Positions 2,785-63,333 of a stretch of 64,000 nucleotides of DNA are shown in pieces. The translations under genes were made by a program, and so were the position numbers. Every line of letters begins with the position of its first letter. Position 1 is the first letter of the stretch. Source of the DNA: Octopus vulgaris (taxonomy: Eukaryota). The notes below the pieces were generated by a model, which saw only the letters and a list, made by a program, of their open reading frames with translations, was not told where the DNA came from and ran no database searches. Location: NCBI GenBank assembly GCA_951406725.2, contig OX597832.1, positions 51,026,001 through 51,090,000 of the forward strand, given 5' to 3'.

Positions 2785-3218
2785 GGATCTTTTCGGTTTG
2801 AACGGCAGTTTTTTCTAGCGATGTCATATGAAATTGTCACCCATAATTATGACCCTAGTATCGATCTATTGCATTTCAATCTGTTTTAGGGTTAGTTAGG
2901 TTTAGGGTTAGGGTTAGGGGTGGGGGGAAGGGTATCTTTTTTCTTCAGAAATGTAAATAAACCCAATCTGTTTCTTAAACGAGGGGACATATTCATACGG
3001 CACAGAATGTTTTCACCTCAATAGACGTCATTGATTGGTTAAAATTGCAGAAATTGAAGAAAAAAAACAACAAATATCATACAAACTATAGAATTTTCTC
3101 AATAAAGCCAAGAGAAAAAGATGTTTTATAAACACATTATACCAGTATACGAAGTTTGAAAGTGTTTAGTTACGTGGAAATTATTTTAAAAAACTGCCGT
3201 TCAAAAGGAAAAGATGCC
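2785..3218. mobile_element. MITE, GGATCTTTTCGGTTTGAACGGCAG-TIR family (Merlin-like by GG terminus and 8-bp TSD)
   Basis: TIRs at both ends, internal TTAGGG-like tract, near-identical to 13457, 37400 and 45712; the end of another copy is at 1-39. Confidence 0.9.
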
Positions 3219-3378
3219 AGAAAATAACAAAACTATTTTGTTCGAAAATTCGATACGAGATAAACGAGAAAATAGAGCAAAAAATAAATAAAATCTATAG
3301 GAAAAAGAGCAAAGTTTCATAGTTAAACGAAAGCATTTTTTATTTTCTCGCAGTTCGATTGTTTATCTATTGTTTTGG

Positions 3379-4122: not shown

Positions 4123-4349
4123 TTTGACTACAATATTTTCTGAAAGTCGCGTCGAAGACCAGGAGCAGATAACTACGTTGCTTAACAGTAGTAAAACTTC
4201 TTACAACTCAAATAATTCAATAATTGACGAGAGAAAAGAACTTCTATATGGTCGCTTCATCTGCTAGAAATAGAAGCTAAATCTCCTCCAAAATACACCC
4301 CACGTTTTCATTCTGTTTTTAAAGAAATATAACATTGAATAATGAAATG

Positions 4350-13059: not shown

Positions 13060-14270
13060 CTCTTAATCATCCGTGCCCTCTTATTTGATTAAACTTTGTG
13101 TATTTCTTGAAAGTTCTTAGATTTTTGGAGTGATACACAAATAGGGGCTTTAATTTCATTTTACCAGCAGCATTTTCTCCCATAAGAAGTGTCAGGCGAT
13201 TTTTGGAAGCTTTAAATCCTGGTGTTAACTTCTCAAGAAATAAAAGTTCTAGCAGGCAGGTGTTTCCAGAAAAGTGCTGTTTCATCAACATTGTATTCTT
13301 GCTCTGGCCCCCTTTTAGCAATCATTTTCTTCAACTACTCAGGATAATTGGTAGCAGCCTCTGTATCATAGTACACAATTTCACTAGTCGTATTGTGTAA
13401 ATTCATGCACTTCTTAAACCTTTCATGCCAGCCTTTACTAACCAAACAGGATTTTTGGATCTTTTCGGTTTGAACGGCAGTTTTTAACATAATTTCTAGG
13501 TAACTAAAAAATTTTAAACTTCGTATACTGGTAGAATGTGTTTATAAAACATCTTTTTCTCTTGGCTTTATTGAGAAAATTCTATAGTTTGTAAGATATT
13601 TGTTGTTTTTTTTCTTCAATTTCTGCAATTTCAACCAATCAGTGACATCTACTGAGTTAAAAAGCATTCTGTGCTGTATGAATATGTCCCTCGTTTAAGA
13701 AACAGATTGGGTTTATTTACATTTGTGAAGAAAAAAAAGATACCCTTCCCCCACCCCCACCCCTAACCCTAACTAACCCTAACCCTGAAAGAGATTGAAA
13801 TGCAATAGATCGATTCTAGGGTCATAATTATGGGTGACAGTTTCATATGACACCGCTAGAAAAAACTGCCGTTCAAACCGAAAAGATCCGGATTTTTTAT
13901 TAGATGTTTCACCTTCCATTTTTGGCAAATTGTCATATAAACGTTTGGCTTAGATTTTGAATTACCATGTTATGCCAATTCTGATCCTCACTCCATACAC
14001 TCAAAGAGGTGTTCCATTTTGAGCATTACATTAGATCTATGGAAAAATAAGGTCAGGTCAATTAACAGAGTGGCTTCTTAAGCACTCAGCATAATTTTCT
14101 TTCTGTATTCATGTATTGGTCCCACTGTAGATGCTGCAAGATTTAATGTTTTGGCAAACTTAGTTTTATTTCTGCAGTCAGTATTTTTAAAACATCAAGT
14201 TTAATACCCTGTGTAATCCCTTTATAATTCCTTTCCACATTAGTTCCTTCAGGTCTACTTGACAGCTTCT
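13060..14270 (-). mobile_element. Degenerate pogo/Tigger-type transposase relic
   Basis: [36 protein letters not shown] (Tigger DDE_1 signature) and KGITQGIKLDVLK (CENP-B-like N-terminus); frameshifted and interrupted by a MITE. Confidence 0.85.
13457..13889. mobile_element. MITE (GGATCTTTTCGG family) nested in a pogo relic
   Basis: TIRs with perfect 8-bp TSD GGATTTTT. Confidence 0.92.
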
Positions 14271-26577: not shown

Positions 26578-27086
26578 TGTAGGAACTAATAACATAAACT
26601 TGTATCTATCTTGATTTCTCGTGTGTGTGTGTACCCTAGTCTAGATATCACATAATGGTTGCAAACGAGTATCATCAACATACAAGTGATGTTATTGATG
26701 GAATTTTATTAAAGCAAGTATGTGTTTTTGCATATATCCTATTTCAAATTTTCAAATCAGTATTGTTGTGATTAACCCTTGGTCAGCCCTGCATAAATAC
26801 TGACCAATGATAGGAAGGTATTCCAGCTATTTCTTAAGGCACCATACCTCCAGGACATTACAGGACATTAATGAATACTTCCATCTTTTTGTAAAACAGT
26901 AGAATGTGATTTGAGAGTGAATATATGCTGCTATTTCTAGCAAGCTGGTCAACCACATAGAGGCTCTGTTGTTCGGTTGCTTACTTAGGCCAGTTAGTCG
27001 TATGTGTTTCAGGTAAAATAAACCATTGGCCAGTTTGTAAATATGTGATTAAACCAATCAAAACATCTATGATTTTCTTTAAACAG

Positions 27087-27221
27087 GTTCAACCACCACC
27101 AGATGCTGGAGCATTCAAACCAAGAATCCTAAAAACAACTGCCTTCCGTCGATTTTATGAGAGGGGAGACTTCCCTATAGCTCTAGAATTTGATACGAAA
27201 GGAAACAAGATTGCATGGAAG
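27087..27221 (+). CDS. PACRG: PACRG (parkin co-regulated) exon, 135 nt, phase 0-0
   Basis: aaacag|GTT...AAG|gtaac; [45 protein letters not shown]. Confidence 0.96.
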
Positions 27222-28190
27222 GTAACGTTTTAAATATATATCTTTGTGTGTGTGTGTGTGTATTGTGTCAGATCACTTGTAAGGTAAGTGCCACTGATAA
27301 TATGGAATCCAGTACAACTTGTTGGATATTATTTAGCTGGCAGAGACGTTAGCACGCCAGGCGGAATGCTTAGCGGTATTTCGTCTATCGCTATGTTCTG
27401 AGTTCATATTCTGTCGAGGTCAACTTTGCGTTTCATCCTTTCGGGGTCGATTAAATAAGTACCAGTTACGCACTAGGGTCGATGTAATCGACTTAATCCG
27501 TTTGTCTGTCCTTGTTTGTCCTCTCTGTGTTTAGCCCCTTGTTGGTAGCAAAGAAATAAGAAACGTTAGCATGCCGGGTAAAGTGCTTAGCGATATTTCG
27601 TCTGCCGCTACATTCTGAGTTCAAATTCCGCCAAGGTTAACTTTGCCTTTCATCCTTTCGGGGTCGATTAAATAAGTACCAGATACACACTGGGGTCAAT
27701 GTAATCGACTTAATCAGTTTGTCTGTTCTTGTTTGTCCCCTCTGTGTTTAGCCCCTTGTGGGTAGTAAAGAAATAAGATATTATTTAAATACATAACATC
27801 TTTGTGTGTGTGTGTGTACATATATATATATATATATGTATATATCATTGCTATTATGAAAAAGTGTTTAAGTCCAAAACGTTGCTTTTTCAGAAAATGA
27901 AAAAATAGTTTCCCCATTCCGTTTCTTTTTACATTAGTATCAGTTTCAGCTTAACAATAATACTTTATTCTGTGCATAAGATCGTAACTCCATGCATGTA
28001 TGATATTTTCTGTCAGAAATATTTTTGCAAAACTGTCGCATGTAGGACCTACTGCACTACTACTGAAAAATGCTAAACTGATGTACTACACCTTGTAGCA
28101 GAAGAATCCCCCAAATCTTACTATATTCAACTAATTAGCCCAAAGTTGCTAACGAACACACTTCAGTCCTTGGCTCACAGACATCCTTTT

Positions 28191-28603
28191 TCTTTTCCTT
28201 TTGATAGCCAGATTTCAACACAATTTCTAGTTAACTAAACCCTTTAAAACTTCGTATACTGGTAGAATGTGTCAAAAGAAAACATTATTTTCACTTTGCG
28301 TTCTTGAGAAAATTGTAATTTGTTCGTTTAACGTAGTTTAATTTTTTGAACGCTACATTACGAACAAAACGGATGTTGTCTCAGTTTTTAGACGCCACAT
28401 ATGATTTCAGCTCAAAAGAGAGCATAGGATTGGTTAAAATTTGAAAAATTAAACTATGTTAAACGAACAAATTACAATTTTCTCAAGAAAGCCAAGAGAA
28501 AATAATGTTTTCTTTTGACACATTCTACCAGTATACGAAGTTTTTAAAGTGTTTAGTTAACTAGAAATTGTGTTGAAATCTGGCTATCAAAAGGAAAAGA
28601 TCC
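28191..28603. mobile_element. Related long-TIR MITE
   Basis: TCTTTTCCTTTTGATAGCCAG...CTGGCTATCAAAAGGAAAAGATCC with ~150-bp inverted arms sharing the CTTCGTATACTGGTAGAATGTG block. Confidence 0.85.
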
Positions 28604-29931
28604 CTTTTTTCTTCACTCTACTTTCTCTAACAATATCACAATAACCTCCGAAGGTAGCAAGCTGGAAGAATCGTTAACACACCAGGCAAAATAGGGAAGT
28701 AATTAGGTGTAGCCATTTGGATGCTAATGGTTTGGCATGGCTGACTGGACTCAAGCTGTTTTGGCACTGGGGGCCTTAACATTCACACTAGTAAATGGTT
28801 GTGATGCATGTACTTGGGGTACGCTTATCATATGCGTAGTCATGATGGGTATATTGGGCTTTCTATATTTGTACCTCTGCGTCACTTTGATTGTGTGTGT
28901 TGCTCTCACACATACATATATTATGCACACCAGGCAAAATGCTTAGCGGCATTTCATCCATTTGGATGAAGGCGGTGAGTTGGCAGAATCGTTAGCACGC
29001 CGGGCAAAATGCTTAGCGGTATTTCGGCTGCTGTTACGTTGTGAGTTCAAATTCCGCCGAGGTCGACTTTGCCTTTCATCCTTTCGGAGCCCATAAATTA
29101 AGTACCAGTTACGCACTGGGGTCGATGTAATCGACTTAATACCTATGTCTGTCCATGTTTGTCCCCTCTATGTTTAGCCCCTTGTGGGTAATAAAGAAAT
29201 AGGCATTTCATCCATTTTTACATTCTGAGTTCAAATTCCACCGAGGTCAACTTTGCCTTTTATCCTTTTAAGGATTATTTATCATTTATCATCTGTCTTC
29301 CATTCTGATATGAGTTCGATAGTTTAACAGAATTATCATCATCATCATCATCATTTAACATCCGTCTTCCATGCTGGCATGCGTCGGACAGCTTGACAGG
29401 AGCTGGCAAGCCAGAGGACTGCACCAAGCTCCACTGTCTCTTTTGCCATTGTTTTTACAGCTGGATACCCTTCCTAACGCCAGCCATTTTACAGAGTGGA
29501 CTGTAACACCAGCAACCAAATAGGTGGCACCAAAGTGGCTGTACCAAAATGCCTCATACCCAATTTACACTGATATTGATACTTTTAGTTGTTGGTAATC
29601 AGTATATTTTTAGCAGTCAATTTCTCATGCCGGTGGCACATAAAAAGCACCATCCGATCGTGGCCGTTTGCCAGCCTCGTCTGGCACCTGTGCTGGTGGC
29701 ACGTAAAAAGCACCCACTACACTCATGGAGTGGTTGGCGTTAGGAAGGGCATCCAGCTGTAGAAACACTGCCAGATCAGACTGGAGCCTGGTGCAGCCTT
29801 CTGGCTTCCCAGACCCCAGTTGAACCGTCCAACCCATGCTGGCATGGAAAGCGGACGTTAAACGATGATGATGATGATGATGATTTTTTAGAGTAGAGGT
29901 TATTTTAAAATTTTATTTTCCTTTCTTGCAG

Positions 29932-30103
29932 ATTGAAATTGAAAAAATGGATTATCATCACTTTTTACCACTGTTCTTTGAAGGCTTACGAGAAAACCAG
30001 CACCCATATGAATTCTTTGCTCGCCAGGGTATACATGACATGTTAGAACATGGAGGAAATAAAATTTTGCCTTGCATTCCTCAACTTATTATTCCAATTA
30101 AAG
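29932..30103 (+). CDS. PACRG: PACRG exon, 172 nt, phase 0-1
   Basis: ttgcag|ATT...AAAG|gtgaat; [57 protein letters not shown]. Confidence 0.96.
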
Positions 30104-31943
30104 GTGAATTCTTAAACTTACCTAAGTTCTTTGCATTCAGTTAAAATGGTACTTGATTTGGTTTCTCTTTTTTTATAAACTATTTGTGCTAAATGATTTG
30201 TCAAATGTTGTGTATAGTTTTTTAGCCTGTGTTACTAAATTATATAAAAAATATCATCATCATCATCATCATCATCGTTTAGCGTCCGTTTTCCATGCTA
30301 GCATGGGTTGGACAGGTCAACTGGGGTCTGTGAAGCTGGAAGGCTTCGTCAGGCCCAGTCAGATCTAGCAGTGTTTCTACGGCTGGATGCCCTTCCTAAC
30401 GCCAACCACTCCGCGAGTGTAGTGGGTGTTTTTTACGTGCCACCTGCACAGGTGCCAGACAGAGCTGGCGAATGGCCACGAACGGATGGTGCTTTTACGT
30501 GTCACCGGCACGGGGCCAGCCGAGGCTGGCAACGGACGCGAACGGATGGTGCTTTTACGTGCCACCGACACGGTTGCCAGACAGAGCTGGCAAACGGCCA
30601 CGAGCGGACGGTGCTTTTACGTGTCACCGGCACGGGGGCCAGCCGAGGCTGGCAACGGACACGAACGGATGGTGCTTTTACGTGCCACCGACACGGGGCC
30701 TGACAGAGCTGGCAAACAGTGAAATTATTGTATACAGTGCTCAGGTGCACCACAACTTGTCAGAAAGTGCGTATAAAGTATATGCAGTAATGTACAAATG
30801 TCTGGAAAACGAACAATGTATGAGTCAGATACATGCTTGTGTGTCTATGGAGGGGAGAAAATCAGGTGTAGTGTTGGTGAATCTCAGAAAGCATGGAAGT
30901 TTTGAAGGATGCAATGCGCTGACAACTAACAACTGGTGCCGGCAGTTTGTTCCATGCTTCAGCAACTCTCAGCGTGAAAAAATGCTTCCGAAAGTCATGG
31001 GAGCTGTGCTGTTTTCTGGCTTTGTAAATATGTCCACGAGTGTTAGACGGGTGGAGTTTGAAAAGGTGCTCAGAGTTATTGTTTGTAATATATATTCATT
31101 CATCTACAGTCTAATGACAGAGACAAATAGAAGGGAAAACAAGATATCATCAACGCCATATCTATTTATTCATATACGTATATATACATACCTGCACACA
31201 AGCAAGTATACTAAAATCCCAACACTTAGAATATTTGTAAAAAAAAAAAAAAATGGGAGGGTGTGACTTTGGAGTAAATTTGGCTGCTATTTCTAGCGGA
31301 TCGTATGATCATGTCGAGCAGAGGTTCTCAACCAGACTCTATATGACCTTTGTGGGTGGGGATTCCATATAAGATTTTGTTGTTAAAATCTATGTATAAT
31401 AATAAATTGATATTACTTCTACAATACACAAAACATTTTAACAATACTTTTTATATAGTTCGTCTCTTTTACTCTTTACCCTTTTACTTGTTTCAGTCAT
31501 TTGACTGTGGCCATGCTGGAGCACTGCCTTTAGTCGAGCAAATTGACCCCAGGATTTGTTCTTTGTAAGCCTAGTACTTATTCTATCGGTCTCTTTTGCC
31601 GAACCGCTAAGTTACGGGGATGTAAACACACCACCATCGGTCATCAAGCGATGTTGGGGGGACAAACACAGAGACATAAACATATACACATATACATATA
31701 TATATACATATATACAACGGGCTCCCTTCAGTTTCCACCTACCAAATCCACTCACAAGGCTTTGGTCAGCCTGAGGCTACAGTAGAAGACACTTGCCCAA
31801 GGTGCCATGCAGTGGGAACGAACCCAGAACCATGTGGTTGGGAAGCAAGCTACTTACCACACAGCCACTCCTGCGCCTATAATATTAATATTCAATTATA
31901 TAAATACGATATTTAATTGCTACTATCTTCTTTTCTCTTGTAG

Positions 31944-32093
31944 AGGCTCTGAATACAAGAAGTTTGCCTATAGTATGTACAACGTTGAAGGTCCTGCAGC
32001 ATTTGGTTGTATCAGCTGAATTAGTTGGTGAAGCGCTTGTACCGTATTATAGACAGATTCTACCAATATTCAACATCTTCAAAAACAAGAACT
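31944..32093 (+). CDS. PACRG: PACRG exon, 150 nt, phase 1-1
   Basis: ttgtag|AG...AACT|gtaag; (E)[49 protein letters not shown]; not in the ORF track in this frame. Confidence 0.95.
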
Positions 32094-32752
32094 GTAAGCT
32101 TCTTATATGTTTCTTCCCATAGCTGCCTGCAGGCAACTTTTTTCTGTCTTATAAGGCTAAATACTCAATCTTTCTGCTGTTTCACAACTTCACTGCATTT
32201 AAAGTTTACTCTCTTGTCTGTAAAATACCAAACACATTCGACACTTCCAAAGTTTATTCTTTTACTTGTTTCAGTCATTTGACTGCGGCCAAGCTGGAGC
32301 ACCACCTTTAATCGAGCAACTCGACCCCGGCACTTATTCTTTTGTAAGCCCAGTACTTATTCTATCGGTCTCTTTTGCCGAACCACTAAGTAACGGGGAC
32401 ATAAACACACCAGCATCGGTTGTCAAGCAATGCTAGGGGGACAAACACATACACACATATATATATATACAATATATACTACGGGCTTCTTTCAGTTTCC
32501 TTCTACCAAATCCATTCACAAGGCTTTGGTCAGCCTGAGGCTATAGTTGAAGACACTTGCGCAAGGTGCCACGCAGTGGGACTGAACCCTGAACCATGTG
32601 GTTGGTAAACAAGCTACTTACCACACAGCCACTCCTGCGCCTATAAAAAAAAAAAAAATGTCTAAATATTGCTTTAAATAGTCATGTGCCTTCATTACAA
32701 ACAATTTATCGTTTTTTAACCAAATGTTGTTTCGTCCTTTGTTATTTTTTAG

Positions 32753-32913
32753 TAAACATCGGTGATGAAATAGATTACAGCCAACAGAAACGAATGAATG
32801 TTGGAGACTTGATTCAGGAAACTTTAGAGCTCTTTGAACGCCATGGTGGAGAAGACGCTTTCATCAACATCAAGTACATGATACCAACATATGAATCCTG
32901 TCTTATGAACTAA
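32753..32913 (+). CDS. PACRG: PACRG last coding exon
   Basis: ttttag|TA AAC...; (L)[52 protein letters not shown], the canonical PACRG C-terminus. Confidence 0.96.
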
Positions 32914-37043: not shown

Positions 37044-37399
37044 CTGTAAAAGAATAATAGTAGCAATAGTAAAAAAACAGAACCAATCAATCATATCAGT
37101 TTCTAGACCCACAAACACACCAAAAATATCTAACCACAGTCAATAAAGGAGTCTTTATGTGGTTACCTGAGCTTCTAGACATGGCTGTCAAATCTCTCCT
37201 AAATCACATCCTACGAGCTTAAAAAAAAAAAGGACGTAATTAATCGCATTGTCCCCAATATACATTGTCTTAATAATAAAAAAAAAAAAGGGGGGAAAAA
37301 AATCTTCTGACTGCTGTCACGGACTGAAGGTTTTCAATTCTGGTTCACTGCATAAAGGATAACCTGAGATCCAACAAAAACAATAACAGCGATAATAGC

Positions 37400-37793
37400 G
37401 GATCTTTTCGGTTTGAACGGCAGTTTTTAAAAATAATTTCCACGTAACTAAACACTTTTAAACTTCGTATACTGGTAGAATGTGTTTATAAAATATCTTT
37501 TCTCTTGGCTTTATTGAGAAAATTCTATAGTTTGTATAGTTTTCTGCAATTTCAACCAATCAATGACGTCTATTGAGGTGAAAACATTCTGTGCCGTATG
37601 AATATGTCCCTCGTTTAAGAAACAGATTGGGTTTATTTACATTTCTGAAGTAAAAAAGATACCCTTCCCCCCACCCCTAATCCTAACCCTAAAACAGATT
37701 GAAATGCAATAGATCGATACTAGGGTCATAATTATGGGTGACAATTTTATATGACACCGCTAGAAAAAACTGCCGTTCAAACCGAAAAGATCC
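37400..37793. mobile_element. MITE (GGATCTTTTCGG family)
   Basis: TIRs with 8-bp TSD ATAATAGC. Confidence 0.92.
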
Positions 37794-38747
37794 ATAATAG
37801 CTTTTCTACGTTTAAATTGCATTGGATTACTTTGTATGCCACCAGGACAGAACTCAAATTTCGATCTGCTAGAAATAGCAGTAAGTTTTTTTTCCTCACA
37901 TCACACTCTACCGTTTTAAAAAGCGAGAAGATTGAATGATATAGTCCTGGATATAAATAAATTTGGGAAAATTATAGAGTGGTCGCGGCTGGCATGTCTT
38001 AGATCTGCTCAAGGAAGATAATAAAAGACGAACCAACAGCCAAGTCCCATCAAAGTTAGGAAACACAAGGGAGACAACTCCGTCGAACATAACCCCTATA
38101 TCATTAAATTTGTTTTTTGTATTTGTTTTGCAAGATCCTTAATGTGGAATCGTGTGTTGATGCGGATATAGTATCTAGTGTGTGGTGTGGGGAGGTATCA
38201 TTTTGTCAATAAGAAAGATTCTATTTCACTTCATTTTCCTTCCAGTGAGAGATAAGGATTTCACTTCATTTATTTGTCAACCAGTTAACCAAATAACTAA
38301 TCGGGTTTTTTTTTTATATAATCGTTCGATTAATGCACCAATCAGCTGGCTTGTAAGAATCTTTTCGTAACTATTCACGATCTCACCAAATAACATGCCC
38401 TCATTACTCCAGACATATCTCCTTGCCATATTCTCTTTAAGCTTTCTTTTAGGCTTAAATTCTCCAAATTCTTCCATTTGAGAAAATTCAAAATATTCAT
38501 AGTTGTCTCCCTTGAAATTTCTTTTTAACTTTTCTCCTTGCTGTGATTTAGTCATTATCATCATCATCATCGTTTTACGTCCGCTTTCCATGCTAGCATG
38601 GGTTGGACGATTTGACTGAGGGCTGACGAACCAGATGGCTGCACCAGGCTCCAATCTTGATCTGACAGAGTTTCTACTACTTCAGATATGTAAATACTCT
38701 AAATGTTTCCAAGGGTTCTCATTCAAATAAAACCAAAAGCAACTTAC

Positions 38748-38801: not shown

Positions 38802-38833
38802 CTAAAGGAAAAAGAAATAACAAATATTTTATC

Positions 38834-39105
38834 AGTTCTATATTTAAGAGATGAGGAATTATGTACATTATTTCCATTCAACGGATATTTGTCCTCATCT
38901 TGTTTGTTGCTAACACAACGTTTCGGCTTATATACCCTCCAAGCCTTCTCCAGGTGTCTTGGGGAAATTTCAAACCTAGGTTCTCATTCCTAAGGTATTT
39001 TTCAATGTTATTATTATTATTATTGTTGTTCAGATCACTGCTTGGAATTGAACTCGGAATCTTGGGGTTAGTAGCCCGCACTCTTAACCCCAAGATTCCA
39101 AGTTT
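38834..39105 (-). mobile_element. Second copy of the tRNA-headed, hammerhead-bearing SINE (USB1 intron 3)
   Basis: Colinear with 59397-59650; motif ACAC-CTGGAGA-A-GGCTT-N10-AAGCC-GAAACGTT-GTGT; short inverted piece of the tRNA head at its 5' end. Confidence 0.75.
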
Positions 39106-40716: not shown

Positions 40717-41497
40717 ATACTGAATAGCATTCTGTCTGACACTCTACTGATTCTGCCAATTTACAACCCCAAGGCATACATTCAATAACTCTCATGCACA
40801 CATCGCTGGGCTAAGAGAGCTATGTTGTTACATTCTATGTGTTCTAAAACCAAAGATCCAGGTAGATCAAACATATACACGCACATACATACATCATCAT
40901 CATCCTCATCATCATCATCATTGTTTAACGTCTGCTTTCCATGCTAGCATGGGTTGGACGGTTTGACTGTGGGCTGGTGAACCAGATGGCTGCACCAGGC
41001 TCCAGTCTTGATCTGGCAGAGTTTCTACAGCTGGATGCCCTTCCTAACGCCAACCACTCTGAGTGTAATTGGTGCTTTTACGTGCCACCAGCACAGGGGC
41101 CAGTCAGGTGGTACTAGCAACGACCTCGCTCGAATTTTCTTTTTACACATACATACATAATAAAAAAATAAACGTGCCCTTCTAAAGCCTAGCCGGGCCT
41201 GGTTTCAATGGCGTATGCATACCCCAGCTGGACGGGACGCCAGTCCATCGCAGCGTTACTCATTTTTGCCAGCTGAGTGGACTGGAGCAACGTGAAATTA
41301 AGTGTTTTGCTCAAGAACACAACGCGTCACCCGGTCCAGGAATCAAAACTACAATCTTATGATCATGATGCTGACACCCTAACCACTAAGCCACACACCT
41401 CCACATATACATACATAAGCTTTCTGTATTACACATGGTTAAGATTTTGATCTTCTCTACACGTTTCAGCACAGAAGTAAAAAAAAATTGTACAAAC

Positions 41498-41678
41498 CTG
41501 ACAGCATCCTGTAGACTTACTGACAGACTGTCAGTGAGAGGCTGAATCCAATGATGACGTATTGGCACTGTCTTTGACAAACTAAGATGAAGCTGAGAGT
41601 ATGCTTTGAAATCTGCAAAAGGCTCCAGTTCCGAAAGTAGAAGTCTCTGTATTTCTGCAAAGTGTTCGTTTCTTTCCA
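41498..41678 (-). CDS. USB1: USB1 exon 3 (first catalytic HxS motif)
   Basis: ctccag|TG...AG|gtttg; VERNEHFAEIQRLLLSELEPFADFKAYSQLHLSLSKTVPIRHHWIQPLTDSLSVSLQDAV. Confidence 0.95.
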
Positions 41679-42983
41679 CTGGAGAAAAGAAGAACAGCAT
41701 AAAAAAAAATCCTCCTCCTCATTATCATCATTAACTTTTAGCATGCTGGAGACACATTATGTTGCAGTATGAGTTTTCTCCCCTGTCAATGTGACTCAAT
41801 GCATCTGCTGCTACAGGGGACAAAACATGGCTCAGACGGAAATTTACTGAGACAAATTTTGTACAGCCAGATGTCTTTCCTTTCTGAAAGAAGCCCGTCG
41901 TATATGTGTGTGTGTTTGTGTGTTTGTGTGTCTATGTTTGTCCCCCCCCCCCCAACATCGCTTGACAACAGATGCTGGAGTGTTTACATCCCTGTAACTT
42001 AGCAGTTCGGCAAAAGAGACGGATAGAATAAGTACTAGGCTAACAAAGAATAAGTCCTGCAGTCGATTTGCTCAACTAAAAGGCGGTGCTCCAGCATGGC
42101 CACAGTCACATGACTGAAACAAGTAAAAAAGTAAAGAGTAAAAGAGTATATCTGTGGAGTGCTCAGCCACTTGCACATTAATTTCACGGGCAGGCTGTTC
42201 CATTGATTAGATCAACCAGAACCCTCATTATCAGAACCAGCAGAGTGCCAGTAATACATTGCTGCCCCCACGCCCCAAAATGCAGAGGCCCTTGGCAACT
42301 GCCCTGTGTACCTTAAGATGACATTGCTTACCATCACTCTACGTCTTCCACAGCTCAACAACATCTTATCATCAATCTACCATGTCTGCAACAAATCCAA
42401 TATCCACCACAAATCTAAAACATCTACCACCATCCTACAATCATCATCATCATCATCATCATCATCGTTTAGCGTCCGCTTTCCATGCTGGCATGGGTTG
42501 GACGGTTCAACTGGGGTCTGGGAAGCCAGAAGGCTGCACCAGGCCCAGTTTGATCTGGCAATGTTTCTACGACTGGATGCCCTTCCTAACGCCAACTACT
42601 CCATGAGTGTAGTGGGTGCTTTTTATGTTCCACTGGCACAGGTGCCAGACGAGGCAGGCAAACGGCCACGATTGGATGATGCTTTTTACGTGTCACTGGC
42701 ACAGGGACCAGGCAAGGCTGGCAACGGCCACGATCGGATGGTGCTTTTTACGTGCCACCGGCACGAAGCATACAATATACCACAAATCTTCAATGTCTAC
42801 CACCACTACTTTACAATGGTTACCAAAACTCTACCAGACTTATCAGCACTCTGCAATGCCTATGACCACCAGTCTACAGTGCTTATTGCCACAATACAGG
42901 ATCTTTCTTACCACCTTTCTACAATAATCAAACACTTTATCATTTATGATAGATTAAAGAAGCAACTAAATAAATATCCTTAC

Positions 42984-43129
42984 CTTCAATGTACACATGG
43001 GTCGCCCAGTTACCGGCAAGATGAGGGAAACTTCTAATACGTCCTTCATGAAAATCAGGATTGTCAACAACAGAGATTTCTTTTTCTTTAAACATGTTTT
43101 TAATGTCATCTGGCAATGGAAGTGGGTCT
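42984..43129 (-). CDS. USB1: USB1 exon 2
   Basis: tttcag|A GAC...GAA G|gtaag; DPLPLPDDIKNMFKEKEISVVDNPDFHEGRIRSFPHLAGNWATHVYIE (the H.GR.RSFPH..GNWATHVY signature). Confidence 0.95.
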
Positions 43130-43884
43130 CTGAAATAATTTACCGCAATCATAATTGAAGAGAAAAAAAAACAGTGACTTGGATTGAAGTATATTTTTCT
43201 GACATAGGCTAAGGCATGACTGAGTTGTAAGAAGTCTGCTTCCCAACCACATAGTTCCAGGTTCAGATCCACTGCATGGCACTTTGGGCAAGTGTCTCCT
43301 ATAATAATCCCAGGCCAACCAAAATGTTGTGAGTGGATCTGTTAGACGGAAATTGAAAGAAGCCTGTTGTGTGTGTATCTTTGTGCATGTGTTGGTTCTC
43401 CCTACCACTGCTTCACGACTGATGTTGGTTTGTTTACATCCCCATAAATCTAGTGGTTCAACAAAAGAGATCAATAGAATAAGTAACAGGCCTAAAACAA
43501 ATAAGCACCAGGATCAATTTGTTCAACTAAGCCCTTCAAAGAAGTACCCCAGCATGGCCACCGTTCCGACTGAAACACTCTACCTGTTTTATGCTCAAAC
43601 CATCCAGATCTGGCCTCTCACACCTACCCTACAATATCGTTCTAAAAATTAAACAATCACATCATTGAAATCTTGAAGCTACAAGATAATACATGATGAA
43701 TTTAACCCTTTCGTTACCAACCCGGCTGAAACCAGCTCTGGTTCTGTAATACAAATGTCTTGTTTTCATAAGTTTTGAATTAAAATCTTCCACCAAATCT
43801 TAGTCACAATTAATGTTCCTAACACTTGCTTAATGATAACTAAGTTATTTTACTAATTTCTTTTATATTTAAAATAATTCTGAA

Positions 43885-45595: not shown

Positions 45596-45711
45596 TAAGA
45601 TTGAGCCTACCGGTGTTTTACAAAATTTACTTCCTTATTAATTTTTTTCCATGTGCTTTTATTGTCAACTGGGTTTCACTGATGTGCTTCATGTTTGATA
45701 AAAGAAAGTTG

Positions 45712-46133
45712 GGATCTTTTCGGTTTGAACGGCAGTTTTTTTCTAGCGGTGTCATATGAAATTGTCACCCATAGTATCGATCTATTGCATTTTAATCTGT
45801 TTTAGGGTTTGGGTTAGTTAGGGTTAGGGTTAGGGGTGGGTGGAAGGGTATCTTTTTTTCTTCACAAATGTAAATAAACCCAATCTGTTTCTTAAACGAG
45901 GGACATATTCAGACGGCACAGAATGTTTTTTTTACCTCAATAGACGTCATTGATTGATTGAAATTGCAGAAATTGAAGAAAAAACAACAAATATCTTACA
46001 AACTATAGAATTTTCTCAATATAGCCAAGAGAAAAGATGTTTTATAAACACATTCTACCAGTATACGAAGTTTAAAAGTGTTTAGTTACGTGGAAATTAT
46101 TTTTAAAAACTACCGTTCAAACCGAAAAGATCC
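45712..46133. mobile_element. MITE (GGATCTTTTCGG family) immediately upstream of the USB1 start codon
   Basis: TIRs with 8-bp TSD GAAAGTTG. Confidence 0.92.
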
Positions 46134-48473
46134 GAAAGTTGTCCCACAGCTAAATATATTTTTTACTATTTCTGATTATCAGCATTCTTATGGCAGTATC
46201 AGTGGGGAAGAAATGCCACACAACATTCAATTTCGTTCTCTTATAGACTGAGTTAAAATCCACCGGGTTCGACATTGCCTTTCACCCGTTATTTGGGAAT
46301 TGGTGCCCAACCACGTTGTTCCTGGTTCGATCCCACTACGCGCTGTCTTGAACATTGTTTTCTCATGAAAATTTGATACAAGAAAATTGTGGCGTTGCTG
46401 TCTTCAGCATCATTTTATATCGTTTTTCTAGGCTACCATGAATTAGTGGGTCGTCATGTTCTGTATTTCGTAGCATGCACAGCTACAGAAAAAGCCAGCC
46501 GACTTTGGTACTGTGAACTGAATGTATTTTGATGAGTCAACGAAAGATGTTGTTCCCATCTAGGAGGGCTAAAGAAGCTTCTTTATCCAGAAGTTTATAT
46601 TCACATTTACTGTGTCTCCTAAGCTGGGGAGCCAATAATGTAACTCACTGAATCCAGATTCCATTTTGATAGGGTTTCTATTGCTGGATACCCTTCCTAT
46701 CACCAATCACTTTACAAAGAGAAGTGATATCTTGCAAACAACTTGCACATGCAAGTGCTACCAGTTAAAAGCTCTGTATACCGGAAGCTAGCAAGTGTAT
46801 GGGGTCATCAGGAGAGAATGTGCGCTGTTTCGGGGCCTACCTCTCGACGGCATCAATGCACACCGGCCCCGCTTGCTAGATCAGCTGGTTATGAAGAACT
46901 CAATATACTTCTAGACATCGCTCATCGTCTCTTTTTAGCCAAATCCAGTGGCTAGCCTTCTCCACTGTAGATAGGACTAAAGAGTGCCCTTCATCCTTGA
47001 ATCAGTTCTTGTGTGTATGCCATTTTCTCTATCCAAAGGCTATAAACATAATTGAAAAAGAGGTGCTTAACAAACAAAGTCGCTTGTCATATTTGTTCTT
47101 TAGCTAGTTCCAGACATTTCCTTGACAGTTTCACTCAGAAATGCAGTGAAGCAGTAATTGACCCCTATATAACCAATGACATTACACCAATTGTTTTATA
47201 AAATAAAATAAACAGGATTGAGAAGACCCAGCAAACCAAATGAGACCATAACCTCGTGGCCTATGCCAGGGGTGTAACCAACCCACTTATTATGCGTACC
47301 TTTCCTTCGTTGGACACTAAACTCTGCTTGCAAAGACCTGTTGAGGCAAGTGTAATCGAAATCAAATTTGATGACTGGCATCCGTGCTAGTGGAGCGCTA
47401 AGAGCACCATCCAAGCATGATAGTTGCCAGAGCGGCAAACTGGCTTCCGTGCCGGTGGCACGTACAAAGCACCATTTGAGTGTGATCGTTACCAGCGACG
47501 CCTTACTGGTACTTGTGCCGGTGGCACGTGAAAAAACAATCAAGTAAGGTCGTTGCCAATGCCGCTGGACTAGATCCTGTGCAGGTAGCACGTAAAAAAC
47601 ATCATTTGAGTGTGGCCATTGTCAGTACTGCCTGACTGGCCCTTGTGCTGGTGGCACATAAAAAGCACCCACTACACTCTCGGAGTTGAGGCAAGTGAAA
47701 ATCGAAATCGATCAACATCAATGGAAATTGTAGTTGTGATACCAGCGCTGGTGGCACGTAAGAGAACCATCCAAATGTGGCCGTTGCCAGCGCTGCCCCG
47801 ACTGGCCTCCGTGCCGGTGGCACATAAAAAGCACCCACTACAATCATGGAGTGGTTGGCGTTAGGAAGGGCATCCAGCTGTAGAAACACTGCCAGATCAG
47901 ACTGAGCCTGGTGCAGCCTTCTGGCTTCCCAGACCCCGGTCGAACCGTCCAACCCATGCTAGTATGGAAAGCGGATGCTAAACGATGATGATGATGATTA
48001 CTAAGAATGAAGGTTTTCCAACTGTGCTGTCCTTGTATCATGCCTTCAAAATCCTGTGGGACAACAGGTCCCTTGTCAGGAAGAGCATCCAGCTGTAGAA
48101 CAATACCTTACTAATAAATTCCTCTAACCCATGATAACATGGAAAGACAGACATAAACATCAAATGAATATATGTAGAGGCATATATATACGTCCTTTTG
48201 CTTGTTTCAGTCATTGAACTGTGGCCATGCTGAAGCACTGCCTTGAATAGTTTAGTCAAACTAATTGATTCCTGTACTTACTCTATTGGTTTCTTTTAAC
48301 CAACTGCTAAGTTATGGGGCATAAATAAACCAACAATGGTTTTCAAGCAGTGGTGGAGGTACAAACACAAACACACATGCATATGTGTGTGTGTGTGTAT
48401 GTTGTTATGGTTGAGGATAGTCACATTTTGCCAATTAAACACACTCACTATATACTTGATCTTCACTTCAGCT

Positions 48474-54812: not shown

Positions 54813-55057
54813 CTTATCAATCTGGCAGAGCTGGCGTCGAATCTCCAAATCTCTCCTAGCACAGAGAGCCCGCCGATGTGATCCAATATCATGAAGAAGA
54901 TTACTTCTGTCTTTGTTCTTTTTTACAGAAGCCATGTGGAGAGCAGCAATGTGGTTTCGAAACTTGAACTGATCAACTTCAGGTGGATTAGTATCTTTTG
55001 TTGAATTTTCATTTGTTGAATTTTCAGTTGTTGAATTTTCATTTGGCTGGTCTTTGC
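54813..55057 (-). CDS. ZC3H13: ZC3H13 exon, 245 nt
   Basis: ttctag|GC...AAG|gtttt; ...FRNHIAALHMASVKKNKDRSNLLHDIGSHRRALCARRDLEIRRQLCQIDK, resembling ZC3H13 ..ALNMAAL.RKEERA.LL.NLG...KALC.RRD.AIRKQL. Confidence 0.9.
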
Positions 55058-57170: not shown

Positions 57171-57948
57171 GAAAATGCATTGACAGTAGATTTGGTAGAT
57201 GGAATCTGAAAGAAAGCCATCATGTGTATGTGTGTAAATGAGTGTCCCTGTCATACAAGCAGTACCATTCATTACCAATATTTTGTGAGAACATATCTGG
57301 CAGTGGCAAAATATTACCTTGCTTAAAAAAAAAGGTGAAGATTGATGACATGAAGGGCATCTGGCCATAAAAAATTTGTGCCTCAATAAACTCCATTACA
57401 AAAGTGGACATAAAAAAACAATGATGATGATACAACAAATTACAATAAAACATCATCATCATCATCATCGTTTAAGGTCCGCTTTCCATGCTAGCATGGT
57501 TGGATGATTTTGACTGAGGGCTGGCGAACCAGATGGCTGCACCAGGCTCCAGTCTTGATTTGGCAGAGTTTCTACAGCTAGATGCCCTTCCTAATGCCAA
57601 CCACTCCGAGAGTGTAGTGGGTGCTTTTTACATGCCACCGGCACGGAGGCCAGTCAGGCAGTACTGGCAATGACCTTGCTCGAATCCTTTCACACATGCC
57701 ACCAGCACAGGTGCCAGTAAGGCAACGTTGGTAACAATCACGCTCAAACGGTGCCCTTTTACGTGCCACTGGCACAGAAGCCAGTTGGCTGCTCTGGCAA
57801 TGATCACGCTCGGATGGTGCTCTTGGCACCCTACTAACACGGGCACAAAACCAGGTAACGAAAACATGTGTTCACAGGCATAACACACCAATGAACAGCA
57901 GTGGGAAATAAGAAATATCCGAAGATTCAAATGAGAGAAAGAAATTAC

Positions 57949-58167
57949 CCTGTTCGTTTGTCTCTTTTATTTCCGTTAAATGTTTATTGCAAATGTCTTG
58001 AAGTTTAATGAAGATAAAGTCACCAGCAAACTGACGAGAGACACCAATCTTACTAAATATCCGGCCAGGCCTGAACCCCTGCAAAGCAGAGCCCAACTGT
58101 TCAGTAGGTTTCGGACGGTTTGTTTGCATCATGTGTGACCAATCAATATTGAGGACATCAACAATAC
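57949..58167 (-). CDS. ZC3H13: ZC3H13 exon, 219 nt, conserved C-terminal domain
   Basis: ttgcag|GT...CAG G|gtaat; IVDVLNIDWSHMMQTNRPKPTEQLGSALQGFRPGRIFSKIGVSRQFAGDFIFIKLQDIC, resembling ZC3H13 DWS.L...GAAL.KF.PG.V..RVGISK.LAG..LF.KV...C. Confidence 0.9.
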
Positions 58168-59396
58168 CTGCAAAGAAAGTAAGAAAGGAAAATATATAAA
58201 TACATATAAGAAGTTTAGAAACCTCAAGAGAATGCAAAATAATTTGTTTTTAACCCCTTACCCGGCAGAAACGAATATATGCGTTTTGACCGAAATGGTT
58301 TTTTTCTATCTCTGGCGAGTTACCTCGTCAAAAGATAGACTCGCCAAAATCGACAGCAAACGAGTTCCTTCGTCTATTATAAACTCTTTTTTGACAATTA
58401 AATAAAACAATTAAAAAATATGTCTGAAAAAATACATTTATTTTCAAAATAATTGTTGGGTAAGGGATTAATGGTTGGAACTTGAAGCAGATAATGCTAT
58501 AAATGATAGAGCACTGTATTGACCTCATCTATTTACAGAGAAGGTGGGTTCGAATCTCAGGGGTAGCCTTCAACCTTTTCTTACCAAAATGAATTTTAAC
58601 CCAATATCCACATATTATTTATAGCTTTACAAATACAAATGTATTTATCATGAACAGTTTAAAAAAAAAGGGGGACATTTGCAGTGAAGAAATAAAAAAA
58701 AATAATGAAGCAAAACAAATCAATAATAATTAAACAATAAACATGAAAGTCAAATGTAAAATTCTGCTATAAAAGCTTCAATCATCTTCATCCTTTAACA
58801 TCTGCTTTCCATGTTGGCATGGATGGGTTGGATGGTTTGACCAGAGCTGGCAAGCTAGAGAGCTGCACCAGATTCCAGTCTGATTTGGATTGGTTTCTAC
58901 AGCTGGATGCCCTTCCTTTGAAATAGAAACTTCTCAGAAAGATTTTTCGTAAGTGAAGGCATGTGGTTGTATAGTTAAGAAGTTTGCTTTGTAACGACAT
59001 GGTTTGGGTTTCAGTCCCACCATGTGGCATTTTGGACAAGGGCTGACCATTGCCCTGTGAGTGAATTTTGTAGACAGAAACTGTGTGGGAATTTGTTATG
59101 TATGTGTGTGTGTCTTTGTATCTGTGTTTGTCCTCTCTTCCTGCAGTGTGGCAACCAGCGTTGGTTTGTTTATGCCCCATTAATTTAGGTGTCTTGGCAA
59201 AATAGGTCAATAGAATAAGTACCAGACTTGAAAAACACGTACTTGGATGAATTTATTCGACTAAACCCTTCGAGGCAATGGCAGAAAGAAGTAAAAAATA
59301 AAAGATAAATCAATGGAGGTCTGGACTTTGGTGATGTTTATAGAATGAATTGTGGTGAAAAGGTGCCACGTTTTGAAGTAACTATTAACATAATAC

Positions 59397-59671
59397 AGTT
59401 CTATATTTAAGAGATGAGGAATTATGTACATTATTTACATTCAACGGATATTTGTCCTCATCTTGTTTGTTGTTAACACGTTTCGGCTGATATATCCTCC
59501 AGCCTTCATCAGGTGTCTTGGGGAAATTTCGAACCTGGGTTCTCATTCCTAAGGTATTTTTCGATGTTATTATTTTTATTATTATTGTTATTGTTCAGGT
59601 CACTGCTTGGAATCGAACTCGGAATCTTGGGGTTAGTAGCCCGCACTCTTAACCACTATGCCATATGCCCA
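59397..59671 (-). mobile_element. tRNA-headed SINE with Penelope-type minimal hammerhead motif
   Basis: Minus strand: GGGCATATGGCATAGTGGTTAAGAGTGCGGGCTACTAACCCCAAGATTCCGAGTTCGATTCC (box A/box B), an (AAT)n linker, then ACAC-CTGATGA-A-GGCTG-N10-CAGCC-GAAAC-GTGTT. An inverted partial copy lies at 59771-59890. Confidence 0.75.
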
Positions 59672-59673
59672 TG

Positions 59674-59769
59674 GGCCTGGCCAGATATTTAGTAAGATTG
59701 GTGCATCGTTGTCAGTTTGCTGGTGACTATATCTTCATTAAACTTCAAGACATTTACAATAAACAATTA
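59674..59769 (+). other. Inverted intronic copy of part of a ZC3H13 coding exon (source 57977-58071)
   Basis: ggcctggccagatatttagtaagattggtg...gtcagtttgctggtgactatatcttcattaaacttcaagacatttacaataaaca aligns at ~90% with the reverse complement of 57977-58071. Confidence 0.95.
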
Positions 59770-60346
59770 TTAAAAATACCTTAGGAATGAGAACCCAGGT
59801 TCGAAATTTCCCCCAAAACACCTTAAGATGGCTGGAGGGTATATCAGCCGAAATGTGTTAACAACCAACAAGATGAGAGCAAATATCCGTCATCATCATC
59901 ATCATCGTTTAACGTCCGCTTTCCGTGCTAGCATGGGTTGGACGGTTCAACTGGGGTCTGGGAAGCCAGAAGGCTGCACCAGGCCAGTCAGATCTGGCAG
60001 TGTTTCTACAGCTGGATGCCCTTCCTAATGCCAACCACTCCGTGAGTGTAGTGGGTGCTTTTTATGTACCACAGACACAGGTGCCAGATGAGGCTGGCGA
60101 ACGGCCACGGTCGGATGGTGCTTTTTACGTGCCACCGGCACGGAGGGTACGCAAGGCTGGCAACGGCCACGAGCGGATGGTGTTTGTTACGTGCCACCAG
60201 CACGGAGGCCAGTCGATGTGGTGCTGGCTACGGCCACGTTCGGATGGTTGAATGTAAATAATGTAAATAACTATTAACGTGTTGCTCAGTGAATGTACAA
60301 ATATTTCACCAAATACGTAGCAAGTTTAACAAAAACATAAGCTCAC

Positions 60347-60472
60347 TTTTCTTTTTCTTCTTCTTGTCCCCACCGACTCCAAGGAGGTCCAGGTCCAAAT
60401 CTCCCGTCATGCTCTCTTCTTCTGAACTGATCTCTTCGTACTGCATACTTTCAGTGTCTAGATCGATACCAT
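60347..60472 (-). CDS. ZC3H13: ZC3H13 exon, 126 nt, acidic with terminal poly-Lys
   Basis: cttcag|AT GGT...AAA A|gtgag; GIDLDTESMQYEEISSEEESMTGDLDLDLLGVGGDKKKKKK; phase 1-1. Confidence 0.85.
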
Positions 60473-61775
60473 CTGAAGTTAAAACAGAACCTAATTCAAC
60501 TAAAACAGATAATTATGATGCTTCGTTTCTCCTGTCGCATTTGCAAACAATAGAAAAAGGAAAATTATTCATGTAAATCTCTATATATTAATAATAATAA
60601 TATTACCATATTTTAATGCATATAAGGAATCCCCTTTTTTTTAAATCAAAAATTAGGTTTAAAAAATATGGTTGCTTCTTATACATGGATAGTATTATAA
60701 TCCCTTACAAAACCATTTTTCAAATTAGGGGGTTCCTTATACACGTTGAAATACGGTGGTGGCAGTTGTGGTGGTAATAATAATAATGATAATAATAATA
60801 ATAATAATAATAAATGCCCTGATCCTTTTTCTTAGTGTATTAAATTAGTGACTGGAAAAACAACATAACAAAAAGGCACTATGTAAAACTAAAATGGAAT
60901 TTTTACTGACTGCAATCTCATGTTATCATACATGAAATAATAACGTTTCTCTATTTCCACTGAGATTTTAATTCAAATATGAATATTTTAACCCTTATGA
61001 TACCAACCCACTCAAGACCAACCCTGCTTCTATGATACAAACTTTTGTTAGCACGCTGGGCGAAATGCGTAGCCGTATTTCGTCTGCCATTACATTCTGA
61101 GTTCAAATTCCGCCAAGGTTGACTTTGTCTTTCATCCTTTAGGGGTCAATAAAATTAAGTACCAGTTACGCACTGGGGTCAATATAATCAACTTAATTCA
61201 TTTGTCTGTCCTTGTTTGTCCCCTCTGTGTTTAGCCCCTTGTGGGTAATAAAGAAACATGATATAAACTTTCTATAGAAAATTATCTAAATTAAAATTTC
61301 CCATTCAAATTCCAAACTAATCTATGTCCTAGTTACCAACTAAGTAATGACCAAGATATTTGAGTAAATTCCTTGTCATTTTCAAAATTAATTGATATAA
61401 AGAGGATGTAGGTCAACAGAAATATGATAACAAAAGGGCCAATAAGATGTTAATTGGGACCACAGGTATTTCAGAGGCTGGGTGAAAAGGTTAACCCTTT
61501 TGTTACTAACCCGGCAGAAAAATTTTTTGGTTCATAATACCAACCCGGTCGTACCCAGCCGAGAGAACCTATTGTTATTTAAATGTAAATCTGAACCCAA
61601 ATCTCGTTGGTACATTCGTTACCAACGTGTCCAGTGTAGTAATACATCTAAAGACGGGAACTTCTGATTAATTCAAAGAGATTATCCTTATCAAGCTCAC
61701 ATCTGAGTACACACATAATCAGACATGATATACACACTTAGCTCTAGTATGGAAATAGAAAAGAAATGTACTTAC

Positions 61776-62203
61776 TAATATCAGAGTTCTGTCTTGGAGC
61801 TGGAGTGGCGACAGGGTTAGGAGGGTTGGGAAGTGGAGGTGCAAAGTTCATGTTAGCAGCCATGTTGTGCATAGGATGCATGTTAATGGACATGGGGGGG
61901 TTGGGTAAACAGGAAGGAAGAGAGAGTGAGAGGGGAGGGAGGTTGTTCATGTTAGGCTGAGAGAGGGAATTGTGTGGAAGTATGCCAGACAGGAGGGGCG
62001 AGTTCATTGGTGGACCCGCCATCGACATGGCTACTAAACTATGGAGGGGGACACAACCGGGTGCATCACCGAGTAACGGCTGCTTGATGACATTGGGCAT
62101 AATATCAACAAGATTCCCATGATTGGAGGAGTCAGGCTGAGGCCGGAAATCAGACATCGGCTCCGGGTCTGGTAGCAATCGAGGTAAGAGTTCTGGCTTC
62201 ATT
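61776..62203 (-). CDS. ZC3H13: ZC3H13 (Flacc/KIAA0853) internal proline-rich exon; the gene continues beyond the window
   Basis: tttcag|A ATG AAG CCA...ATT A|gtaagt; open Pro/Met/Asn-rich frame whose phase 1 end matches the next exon. Assignment is by linkage, not by motif. Confidence 0.75.
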
Positions 62204-62924
62204 CTGAAACTAAACAAAGGAAAACCAAGATAAACACTTTCGCTTTAATCTTTAATTTAAAACTAAATAGAATTCAATGTGAGGTATACTTGCCATCTGA
62301 ATATGGCTAACCACTAAGGGTGGGTGTTACTGTAGCTTGTAGCCACAGGAGAACATCGTCTCCAGCTGGCTTTAGGCACACTTTCTGTGCCCTTATGGTA
62401 CTTGCAAAGGGAGGTCATCCTTCCCTCGTTAACCTAAGTGATACGCACGGACTGCAGTTTCTAGGTATTGACCTGTCTTCAGCGTACGACAATCACCAGT
62501 TTTCGATGAAAAGGTGTTCCAATGCAAATATTTATATCGATTTTCCAGTATTTATAAATAAAATTCAACACAACCATAAATCATCCACAACAAATTATGT
62601 GCAAAAATTACAATGTCCATTTGCCCATTTGTTGAATATAATACTTTGATTTCATATCTCAGACAATACAGACAGCTGTCACTTGTGATGAATATGACTG
62701 AATAACATTTACCATGGTTTTATTAATTGTTTTAGGTGCCAATGTAGTTGTAAGCAGACATAGATACTCTCTTGACCCAGTGGAACAGCAAGGATGTGAC
62801 AGCTGGAGAAAGAGAGAGCTGCACCAGCACCGGGCTTCTATGAATTTTCAGCTGAGTAGACTGGAGCAGCATGATATGAAGTACTTTGTTTAACTCTTTA
62901 GCATTTAAACTGACCATATCAAAA

Positions 62925-63333
62925 TCGTAATCAATCAACATCAATGGAATTTGTAGCTGTGATACAAGTGCCGGTGGCACGTAAGAGAACCATCTGAAAG
63001 TGGCCGTAGCCAGTGCCGCCCTGACTGGCCACTGTGCCGGCGGCACGTAAAAAGCACAATCTGATTGTGGCCGTTTCCAGCTTCATCTGGTCTCCATGTC
63101 GGTGGCACGTAAAAAGCACCATCTGATCGTGGCCGTTTACCAGCTTCGTCTGGCACGTAGAAAGCACCCACTACACTCACGGAGTGGTTGGCGTTAGGAA
63201 GGGCATCCAGCTGTAGAAACACTGCCAGATCAGACTGGGCCTGGTGCACCCTCCTGGCTTCCCAGACCCCAGTTAAACCGTCCAACCCATGCTAGCATGG
63301 AAAGCGGACGTTAAACGATGATGATGATGATGA
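62925..63333 (+). mobile_element. SINE-like family C with (GAT)n tail and internal ~50-60-nt tandem units, representative copy
   Basis: GGAGTGGTTGGCGTTAGGAAGGGCATCCAGCTGTAGAAAC...CCAACCCATGCTAGCATGGAAAGCGGACGTTAAACGATGATG. Copies at ~16872, 19140, 29625, 30254, 34370, 36590, 38553, 39808, 40893, 42440, 47200-47998, 57450, 59891, 63891. Confidence 0.88.

Follow-up and report, generated by a model that had tools for sequence, protein, structure and literature searches.

An inverted copy of a ZC3H13 exon segment at the centre of a Penelope-like pseudo-LTR insertion in Octopus vulgaris

Intronic editing-complementary sequences are well known, that of the GRIA2 Q/R site being an example. In squid, repeat-directed editing is widespread (PMC9068888). 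Penelope-like elements have been described with an inverted 5'-truncated copy and a one-sided tail of 30-40 bp (PMC8557442), and the protein of such an element cuts and extends both strands in vitro, with two start sites bounding the tail (PMC11167929). Here and below we cite papers for the sections of them that were covered.

We describe a locus that brings these subjects together. It lies in a stretch of 64,000 nucleotides of Octopus vulgaris DNA (contig OX597832.1, positions 51,026,001 to 51,090,000), which in its full length we call the window. A first-pass annotation, made from the letters alone, had reported that a retroelement captured an inverted copy of a ZC3H13 coding segment, and had proposed that the copy might control editing or splicing of the exon. 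The features are collected in Table 1.

The ZC3H13 exon and its inverted copy

Table 1. Features of the ZC3H13 exon, its upstream intron and the insertion within it
Feature	Position	Strand	Remarks
ZC3H13 coding exon	57949..58167	-	219 nt; start of C-terminal Barding domain; spliced in X1 and X5 contigs (RNA-like)
Source segment of the copy	57977..58071	-	within the 219-nt exon; about human residues 1522-1553 (alignment)
Host intron	58168..60346	-	directly upstream of the 219-nt exon
Left target-site duplication	59379..59389	+	exact over 11 bp, or over 14 if one mismatch is allowed
Left arm, complete Penelope-like pseudo-LTR and tail of about 30 nt	59390..59676	-	pre-mRNA sense
Minimal-hammerhead-like motif	59475..59517	-	variant 2 nt shorter, G at cleavage position
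tRNA-like head	59596..59670	-	A-box and B-box matches
Inverted copy of exon segment	59674..59769	+	filler between arms; 3-nt microhomology with element leader at head junction
Right arm, inner part	59772..59890	+	inverted pseudo-LTR truncated at its 5' end; spans element positions 112-229; complementarity of 92% to 59444-59561
Unrelated short repeat	59891..60249	+	inserted into right arm
Right arm, outer part	60250..60267	+	element positions about 229-251; ends without tail
Right target-site duplication	60268..60278	+	11 bp
Upstream ZC3H13 exon	60347..60490	-	acceptor 60490 or 60472

The identity of the gene as ZC3H13 is borne out by the match of the exon translation (58167-57949) to human ZC3H13 in PDB 7vf2_B (E 9e-10) and by 99% identity to Octopus sinensis ZC3H13, with one residue differing over the 72 full codons. 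The gene has the C-terminal Barding domain and, it appears, the N-terminal CCCH finger of ZC3H13, its genomic exons being followed back to residue 169 of protein P0001; those matching P0001 residues 169-1299 are found upstream, within the next 30 kb. The copied part starts, in the 7vf2_B alignment, just past the equivalent of human F1521; this is within the Barding domain, a strong binder of VIRMA and a weak one of WTAP (PMC9652331). The earlier placement of the segment in a domain that contacts the m6A writer is thus supported, as far as the human structure and the covered sections of that paper go. There are 24 adenosines in the source segment, 20 of which would recode if edited, and the exon as a whole is a multiple of three in length and so preserves the frame if omitted. 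The sequence at 60347-60472 or 60490 is a further exon, and the host intron is therefore bounded as given in Table 1. The two acceptors of this further exon lie 18 nt apart, the X1 and X5 contigs ending at 60472 and P0001 using 60490.

With regard to other genes in the window, exons with Pfam HVSL matches lie downstream of ZC3H13 on the same strand (41386-43341, minus), and the model P0006 (U6 snRNA phosphodiesterase-like) fuses this HVSL gene with ZC3H13, which is probably an annotation join. There is also an ORF with a SARAF domain in one open frame (3379-4200, minus), a set of PACRG (ParcG) exons (26961-32913, plus), and a MITE-like element of about 440 nt with terminal inverted repeats of about 30 nt, present in four copies (2776-3223, 13453-13902, 37399-37803 and 45699-46137).

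Local alignment of the source segment (minus strand) with the copy (plus strand) gives 88 identical columns of 96 (E 1e-31 in the window), the differences being 7 mismatches and one inserted base, and the inverted copy of about 90% identity reported earlier is therefore real. A genome search with the whole exon as query gave two matches, the exon and the copy (E 2.8e-29), the absence of others not being proof of rarity; within the window none of the 11 other approximate coding segments has a copy. The predicted duplex with the exon was also a sound proposal for a free copy, for which 90 pairs are predicted; cofolding of the duplex gives -146 kcal/mol. The differences fall in the duplex as 3 G:U or U:G wobbles, 2 U:U mismatches and one cluster (C:U, C:A and a bulged C), so that the earlier tally was right for the U:U mismatches and the cluster and one short for the wobbles, of which it had counted 2. 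No exon adenosine lies opposite a C, that is, there are no A:C mismatches of that kind. The copy does lie in the exon's own upstream intron as had been stated, but the arms that enclose it had gone unmentioned.

The enclosing insertion and its family

The 11-bp target-site duplication flanks the whole of the unit made up of left arm, copy and right arm, and the copy occupies, as filler, the middle of a pseudo-LTR insertion with its arms head to head. Capture in a retroelement is in this way upheld, the retroelement being Penelope-like. The right arm in total represents element positions 112-251, and at the copy's junction away from the head there is at most weak microhomology. The short repeat at 59891-60249 is later than the unit because it splits the right arm. 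The left arm is off the family majority in 3 of 143 columns and the right arm in 10 of 136 (p 0.03, unadjusted); the lower divergence of the left arm may be due to chance or to later gene conversion.

The short repeat forms an inverted pair with 62988-63333 (84% over 361 nt), and the pair encloses two ZC3H13 exons, 60347-60490 and 61775-62207. It could favour back-splicing or supply a competing helix. A second copy of the pseudo-LTR is present in the window at 38833-39089, with no inverted arm detected.

Judged by ORF and insertion signature, the repeat is the pseudo-LTR of a Penelope-like element. The clearest case is locus L102, where at 1884-3593 an ORF of 569 aa ends beside the head, with the pseudo-LTR following it and an inverted 3' fragment preceding it. 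The ORF matches RVT_1 at E 2.7e-6, a weak match under the curated cut-off, and RVT_1 is found in most of the 120 relatives listed. A direct Pfam search of this ORF gave no GIY-YIG match; PF01541 (GIY-YIG) is present in 3 of the 120 listed near-full-length relatives, and the ORF's C-terminus has an Atlas feature score of 0.97, from language-model features, to clusters in which 20-28% carry PF01541. In 21 of 116 loci picked by pattern, and also in L102-L105, the head is directly preceded by the end of the ORF. A reading of the repeat as a plain SINE whose 5' end snaps back was abandoned once the ORF end was seen upstream of the head.

Head-to-head units are normal for this family, as 70 of the 116 pattern-picked copies have an inverted arm that reaches position 235 or beyond. 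The ends of these arms cluster at 240-254 in 42 of 56 loci, against 283 for the tailed arm, and so are about 30 nt short. Mean divergence of the family from the column-majority letters is 5.9%, which with the calibration in PMC13282606 (a distance of 0.065 for 18 million years) gives an age of about 16 million years. Seven untargeted insertions in 234 kb extrapolate very roughly to 80,000 per genome, the stretches counted being mostly flanks of targeted copies and perhaps repeat-rich. At locus L032 (G000:C30:17292396) a copy is followed by at least 5 tandem repeats of element positions 94-283, a retrozyme-like array that includes the hammerhead-like motif.

The head was not called a tRNA by ARAGORN. 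For its A and B boxes we used the standard motifs, and among 77 loci, chosen by head similarity, these are present in 60 (A box) and 44 (B box). In 92 of 116 copies the first base is no more than 12 nt upstream of the head, mostly at 4-7 nt, and most copies are therefore likely to derive from a transcript that is short or from a stop that is strong. The family has in this respect both the boxes and the discrete 5' end of a tRNA-derived SINE, which suggests that the pseudo-LTR may spread in a SINE-like manner, as a short transcript mobilised by a Penelope-like element.

In the case of the hammerhead-like motif the core letters are intact in 50 of 70 copies. Under the hammerhead cleavage rule, the G at the cleavage position makes it likely that the variant in the left arm is inactive. 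An Rfam search gave no meaningful match to the motif, for which we used the minimal hammerhead descriptor of PMC4209133, a paper that also records the poor activity of minimal hammerhead monomers. Self-cleavage of the pre-mRNA by this motif was considered and set aside as unlikely, given the variant cleavage site, the pairing of the motif within the arm helix and the poor activity of monomers.

Source of the copied segment

The chance of a random retrocopy landing within 2 kb of its source is about 1.4e-6, and the template was therefore local. The first-pass annotation had proposed capture by a transposition accident, of which the involvement of a retroelement holds and ordinary retrocopying does not, the capture being local.

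We surveyed 165 unique loci for filler, and found 104 head-to-head units and 6 cases of non-element runs of at least 18 nt; the source was sought within 1.5 kb on each side for most loci and more widely where a run was unexplained. At locus L162 (G000:C1:200199843) the head junction holds about 55 nt of filler, for which a match in direct orientation exists in unique DNA at a distance of 1.6-1.7 kb. The two agree at 82% over 50 nt (E 1.8e-9, search of 40 kb), with a score of 49 bits where 100 shuffled controls reach no more than 30, and there is a 3-nt overlap at the head; no target-site duplication is detectable at this locus. Apart from the unit in the window, locally matching filler is thus present in 1 of 103 units (95% interval 0.02-5%). 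Local templating at integration thus looks like a by-product that is rare and recurrent, and a few exon-derived fillers per genome are to be expected without selection. The distance between source and head junction is 1.6-1.7 kb in both units, and in both the source is on the side where the arm has the longer tail (n=2).

Other candidates for filler were rejected: those of L050 and L070 belong to the element itself, that of L073 matches what flanks the element in L097, L078 is a microsatellite, and L122 is another repeat (search of 1.5 kb). For the fillers of L129, L133 and L138 no local source was found within 20, 10 and 20 kb respectively.

We think it probable that the copy is filler taken from the exon, 1.3-1.4 kb past the target site, and that it is a drifting by-product giving at most low-level editing of the exon. 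The element protein would nick both strands and prime reverse transcription at two start sites, between which the tail lies; a free 3' end would then switch, through microhomology of about 3 nt, onto the nearby exon and copy 96 nt before the two cDNA ends join. Either the local DNA could be the template, by a fold-back on the primer strand of the kind seen in microhomology-mediated end joining, or the ZC3H13 pre-mRNA while still nascent, and we lean only slightly to the former. The copy crosses no splice junction and its orientation fits both templates.

Two other origins have to be weighed. The filler might come from a separate and later templated repair within an element already in place, perhaps where the hairpin had induced a break, and this would suit the microhomology junctions, which are typical of such repair (PMC12426944), and the apparently younger left arm; however in both known cases the head junction is the exact place of the filler, and its divergence matches that of the right arm and the family, and we give this origin little credence. 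An error of assembly, or the chance landing of an ordinary mRNA retrocopy, has only the repeat-rich setting in its favour. An artefact, which the first-pass annotation had named as a possible refutation, is unlikely because the copy differs from its source at 8 positions, the unit has a target-site duplication and a contig of X16 crosses the right junction, while a chance landing meets the probability given above; we regard either as highly improbable. The X16 contig spans 60220-60600, and the unit therefore likely predates the split from the lineage of X16 and X17, which share differences from the window, five of them in exons, and are therefore of a related lineage. The X17 contig has only 26 letters to the left of the right junction and was not counted as bridging.

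Folding, editing and comparison with known systems

As an antisense complement of the exon within the same pre-mRNA, the copy could in principle direct editing, and folding of exon and intron together had been suggested as a check. Cofolding gives -184 kcal/mol for the two arms against the lower stability of the copy:exon duplex given above. In the pre-mRNA the right arm comes first, followed by the copy, the head, the left arm and the exon, and the arm:arm and copy:exon helices therefore cross. When intron and exon are folded with nested pairs only, 108-110 arm pairs and 0 exon:copy pairs are formed at 15, 25 and 37 C, and the exon:intron duplex is not the favoured structure in these nested folds; forcing it costs 27-32 kcal/mol in nested folding. 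If the left arm is kept single-stranded, 90 exon:copy pairs are formed. Transcription completes the arms about 1.4 kb ahead of the exon, and they are predicted to zip first into a hairpin of 108-110 bp, which would be the more likely ADAR substrate. The copy would be left in a loop of about 210 nt, where its full winding round the exon should be hindered. A pseudoknot with both helices may form, as they share no bases, and would be limited only by winding through that loop.

The nested fold can be switched by simulated edits of the arms, which are crude proxies. With 20 of the 62 arm adenosines changed from A to G it flips to exon:copy pairing in two trials of two, and with 10 changed in neither of two, while with 8 or 10 arm adenosines held unpaired it flips in one trial of two.

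Transcript data come from X1 and X5, which are from two studies and which we guess to be RNA-like. Each has one contig that covers three exons, at 60345-60472, 57948-58165 and 54813-55056, and no other letters occur in it, assembled contigs being apt to drop minor variants. The mean depth of the bin that holds the segment (14.5 and 46.2) is that of the main contig alone. Majority-level editing or skipping is excluded, in X1 and X5 only. Among the 16 runs listed the word share is 0.53, against 0.54 expected for an unedited exon. No row for ZC3H13 or ZC3HD is present in one supplementary file of PMC8382921 or in seven of PMC9989829, and in the protein databases there is no recoded variant, the octopus entries over the exon being gene models.

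With regard to conservation, the 8 differences in 96 nt of the copy compare with 10 in 136 for the right arm (Fisher p 0.81) and with the family rate of 5.9% (P of 8 or more, 0.21). Decay of the copy thus appears neutral-like, 96 nt giving little power for weak constraint, and we find no sign, at this low power, that the pairing has been conserved by selection.

It is against these data that a function has to be considered. In neural tissue the copy may serve as an editing-complementary sequence of new origin and give a recoding cluster on the VIRMA-binding surface, which would come about through the pseudoknot, or after ADAR has edited and loosened the arm hairpin, which would also recruit it. 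The strength of the free duplex, the 90 pairs obtained once an arm is freed, the switch after 10-20 simulated arm edits and the 20 recoding-capable adenosines are all consistent with this, as are the induction of editing by inverted Alus hundreds of bases away (PMC4053975) and the abundant neural recoding of coleoids (PMC9068888). However neither of the two RNA-like runs has an alternative contig over the segment, no exon adenosine is opposite a C, decay is neutral-like and the arms are transcribed before the exon, and we consider such a function unlikely while allowing it some weight. We have far less confidence that the duplex masks the 219-nt exon and causes skipping: the frame would be kept, but the paired segment leaves 96 nt free on the acceptor side and 28 nt on the donor side, the exon is included in the contigs of both X1 and X5, and it is present in all 9 full-length octopus protein models of cluster 1. 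The editing or splicing control element put forward earlier is accordingly not supported so far by the nested fold, the decay of the copy or the unchanged exon in X1 and X5, and exon skipping, also raised there, is not seen in their contigs. Filler that is a by-product of integration remains our preferred explanation.

A wider conjecture is that the tRNA-headed Penelope pseudo-LTR has seeded the octopus genome with hairpins by the tens of thousands, about 1% of them with a loop copied from nearby host sequence, and that at ZC3H13 there is a two-stage switch, in which ADAR edits and loosens the arm hairpin, the copy once released pairs with the exon, and the VIRMA-binding surface of this m6A-writer subunit is recoded in neurons. 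It is rather less likely than the editing function itself, and if true would provide a mechanical route to lineage-specific recoding clusters. The question at stake is how new recoding clusters arise in coleoids, for which the locus is a datable natural test, since a near-perfect exon complement came from one event and species expected to be without the copy can serve as controls. Even if the copy is silent, the locus indicates that a Penelope-like element may spread its pseudo-LTR in a SINE-like manner, mostly as built-in hairpins, and that it sometimes copies host DNA where its two cDNAs meet, a step left unsettled in the sections of PMC11167929 covered.

In the literature covered, with repeat libraries and most subscription papers outside its scope, we found no tRNA-headed octopus pseudo-LTR and no local filler in Penelope-like insertions, and the family is not described in the covered parts of bioRxiv 10.64898/2026.07.22.740005 and PMC8967140. 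The closest elements are those of the Penelope/Poseidon type (PMC8557442, PMC11167929, PMC4209133), which share the ORF with RT and GIY-YIG-like parts followed by a pseudo-LTR, the inverted 5'-truncated copy at the 5' end, the one-sided tail of about 30 nt and the minimal-hammerhead-like motif. The octopus pseudo-LTR differs from them in its tRNA-like head, its apparent SINE-like spread and the two units with filler that matches nearby host DNA.

As a possible guide for editing the copy resembles the GRIA2 type of editing-complementary sequence in being an intronic antisense match to an exon, and the hairpin resembles the inverted Alus that induce editing (PMC4053975) in being long, intronic and near a coding exon. 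Unlike known editing-complementary sequences the copy has neither a conservation signal nor an A:C mismatch, and is predicted to be locked in a hairpin loop.

As a product of insertion it is comparable to the LINE-1 chimeras formed by template switching or twin priming (PMC13174262), which also have a host exon in an insertion with a single target-site duplication. However in those chimeras the element is absent from 15 of 17 source genes, whereas here the source is 1.3-1.4 kb away and the element is Penelope-like. Microhomology-mediated end joining (PMC12426944) likewise gives filler copied from the flank, with microhomology of a few bases and in both orientations, as in the window (inverted) and L162 (direct). 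The templated insertions of end joining are generally below 25 bp, whereas those described here are of 55-96 nt, have their source more than 1 kb away and lie at a retroelement junction.
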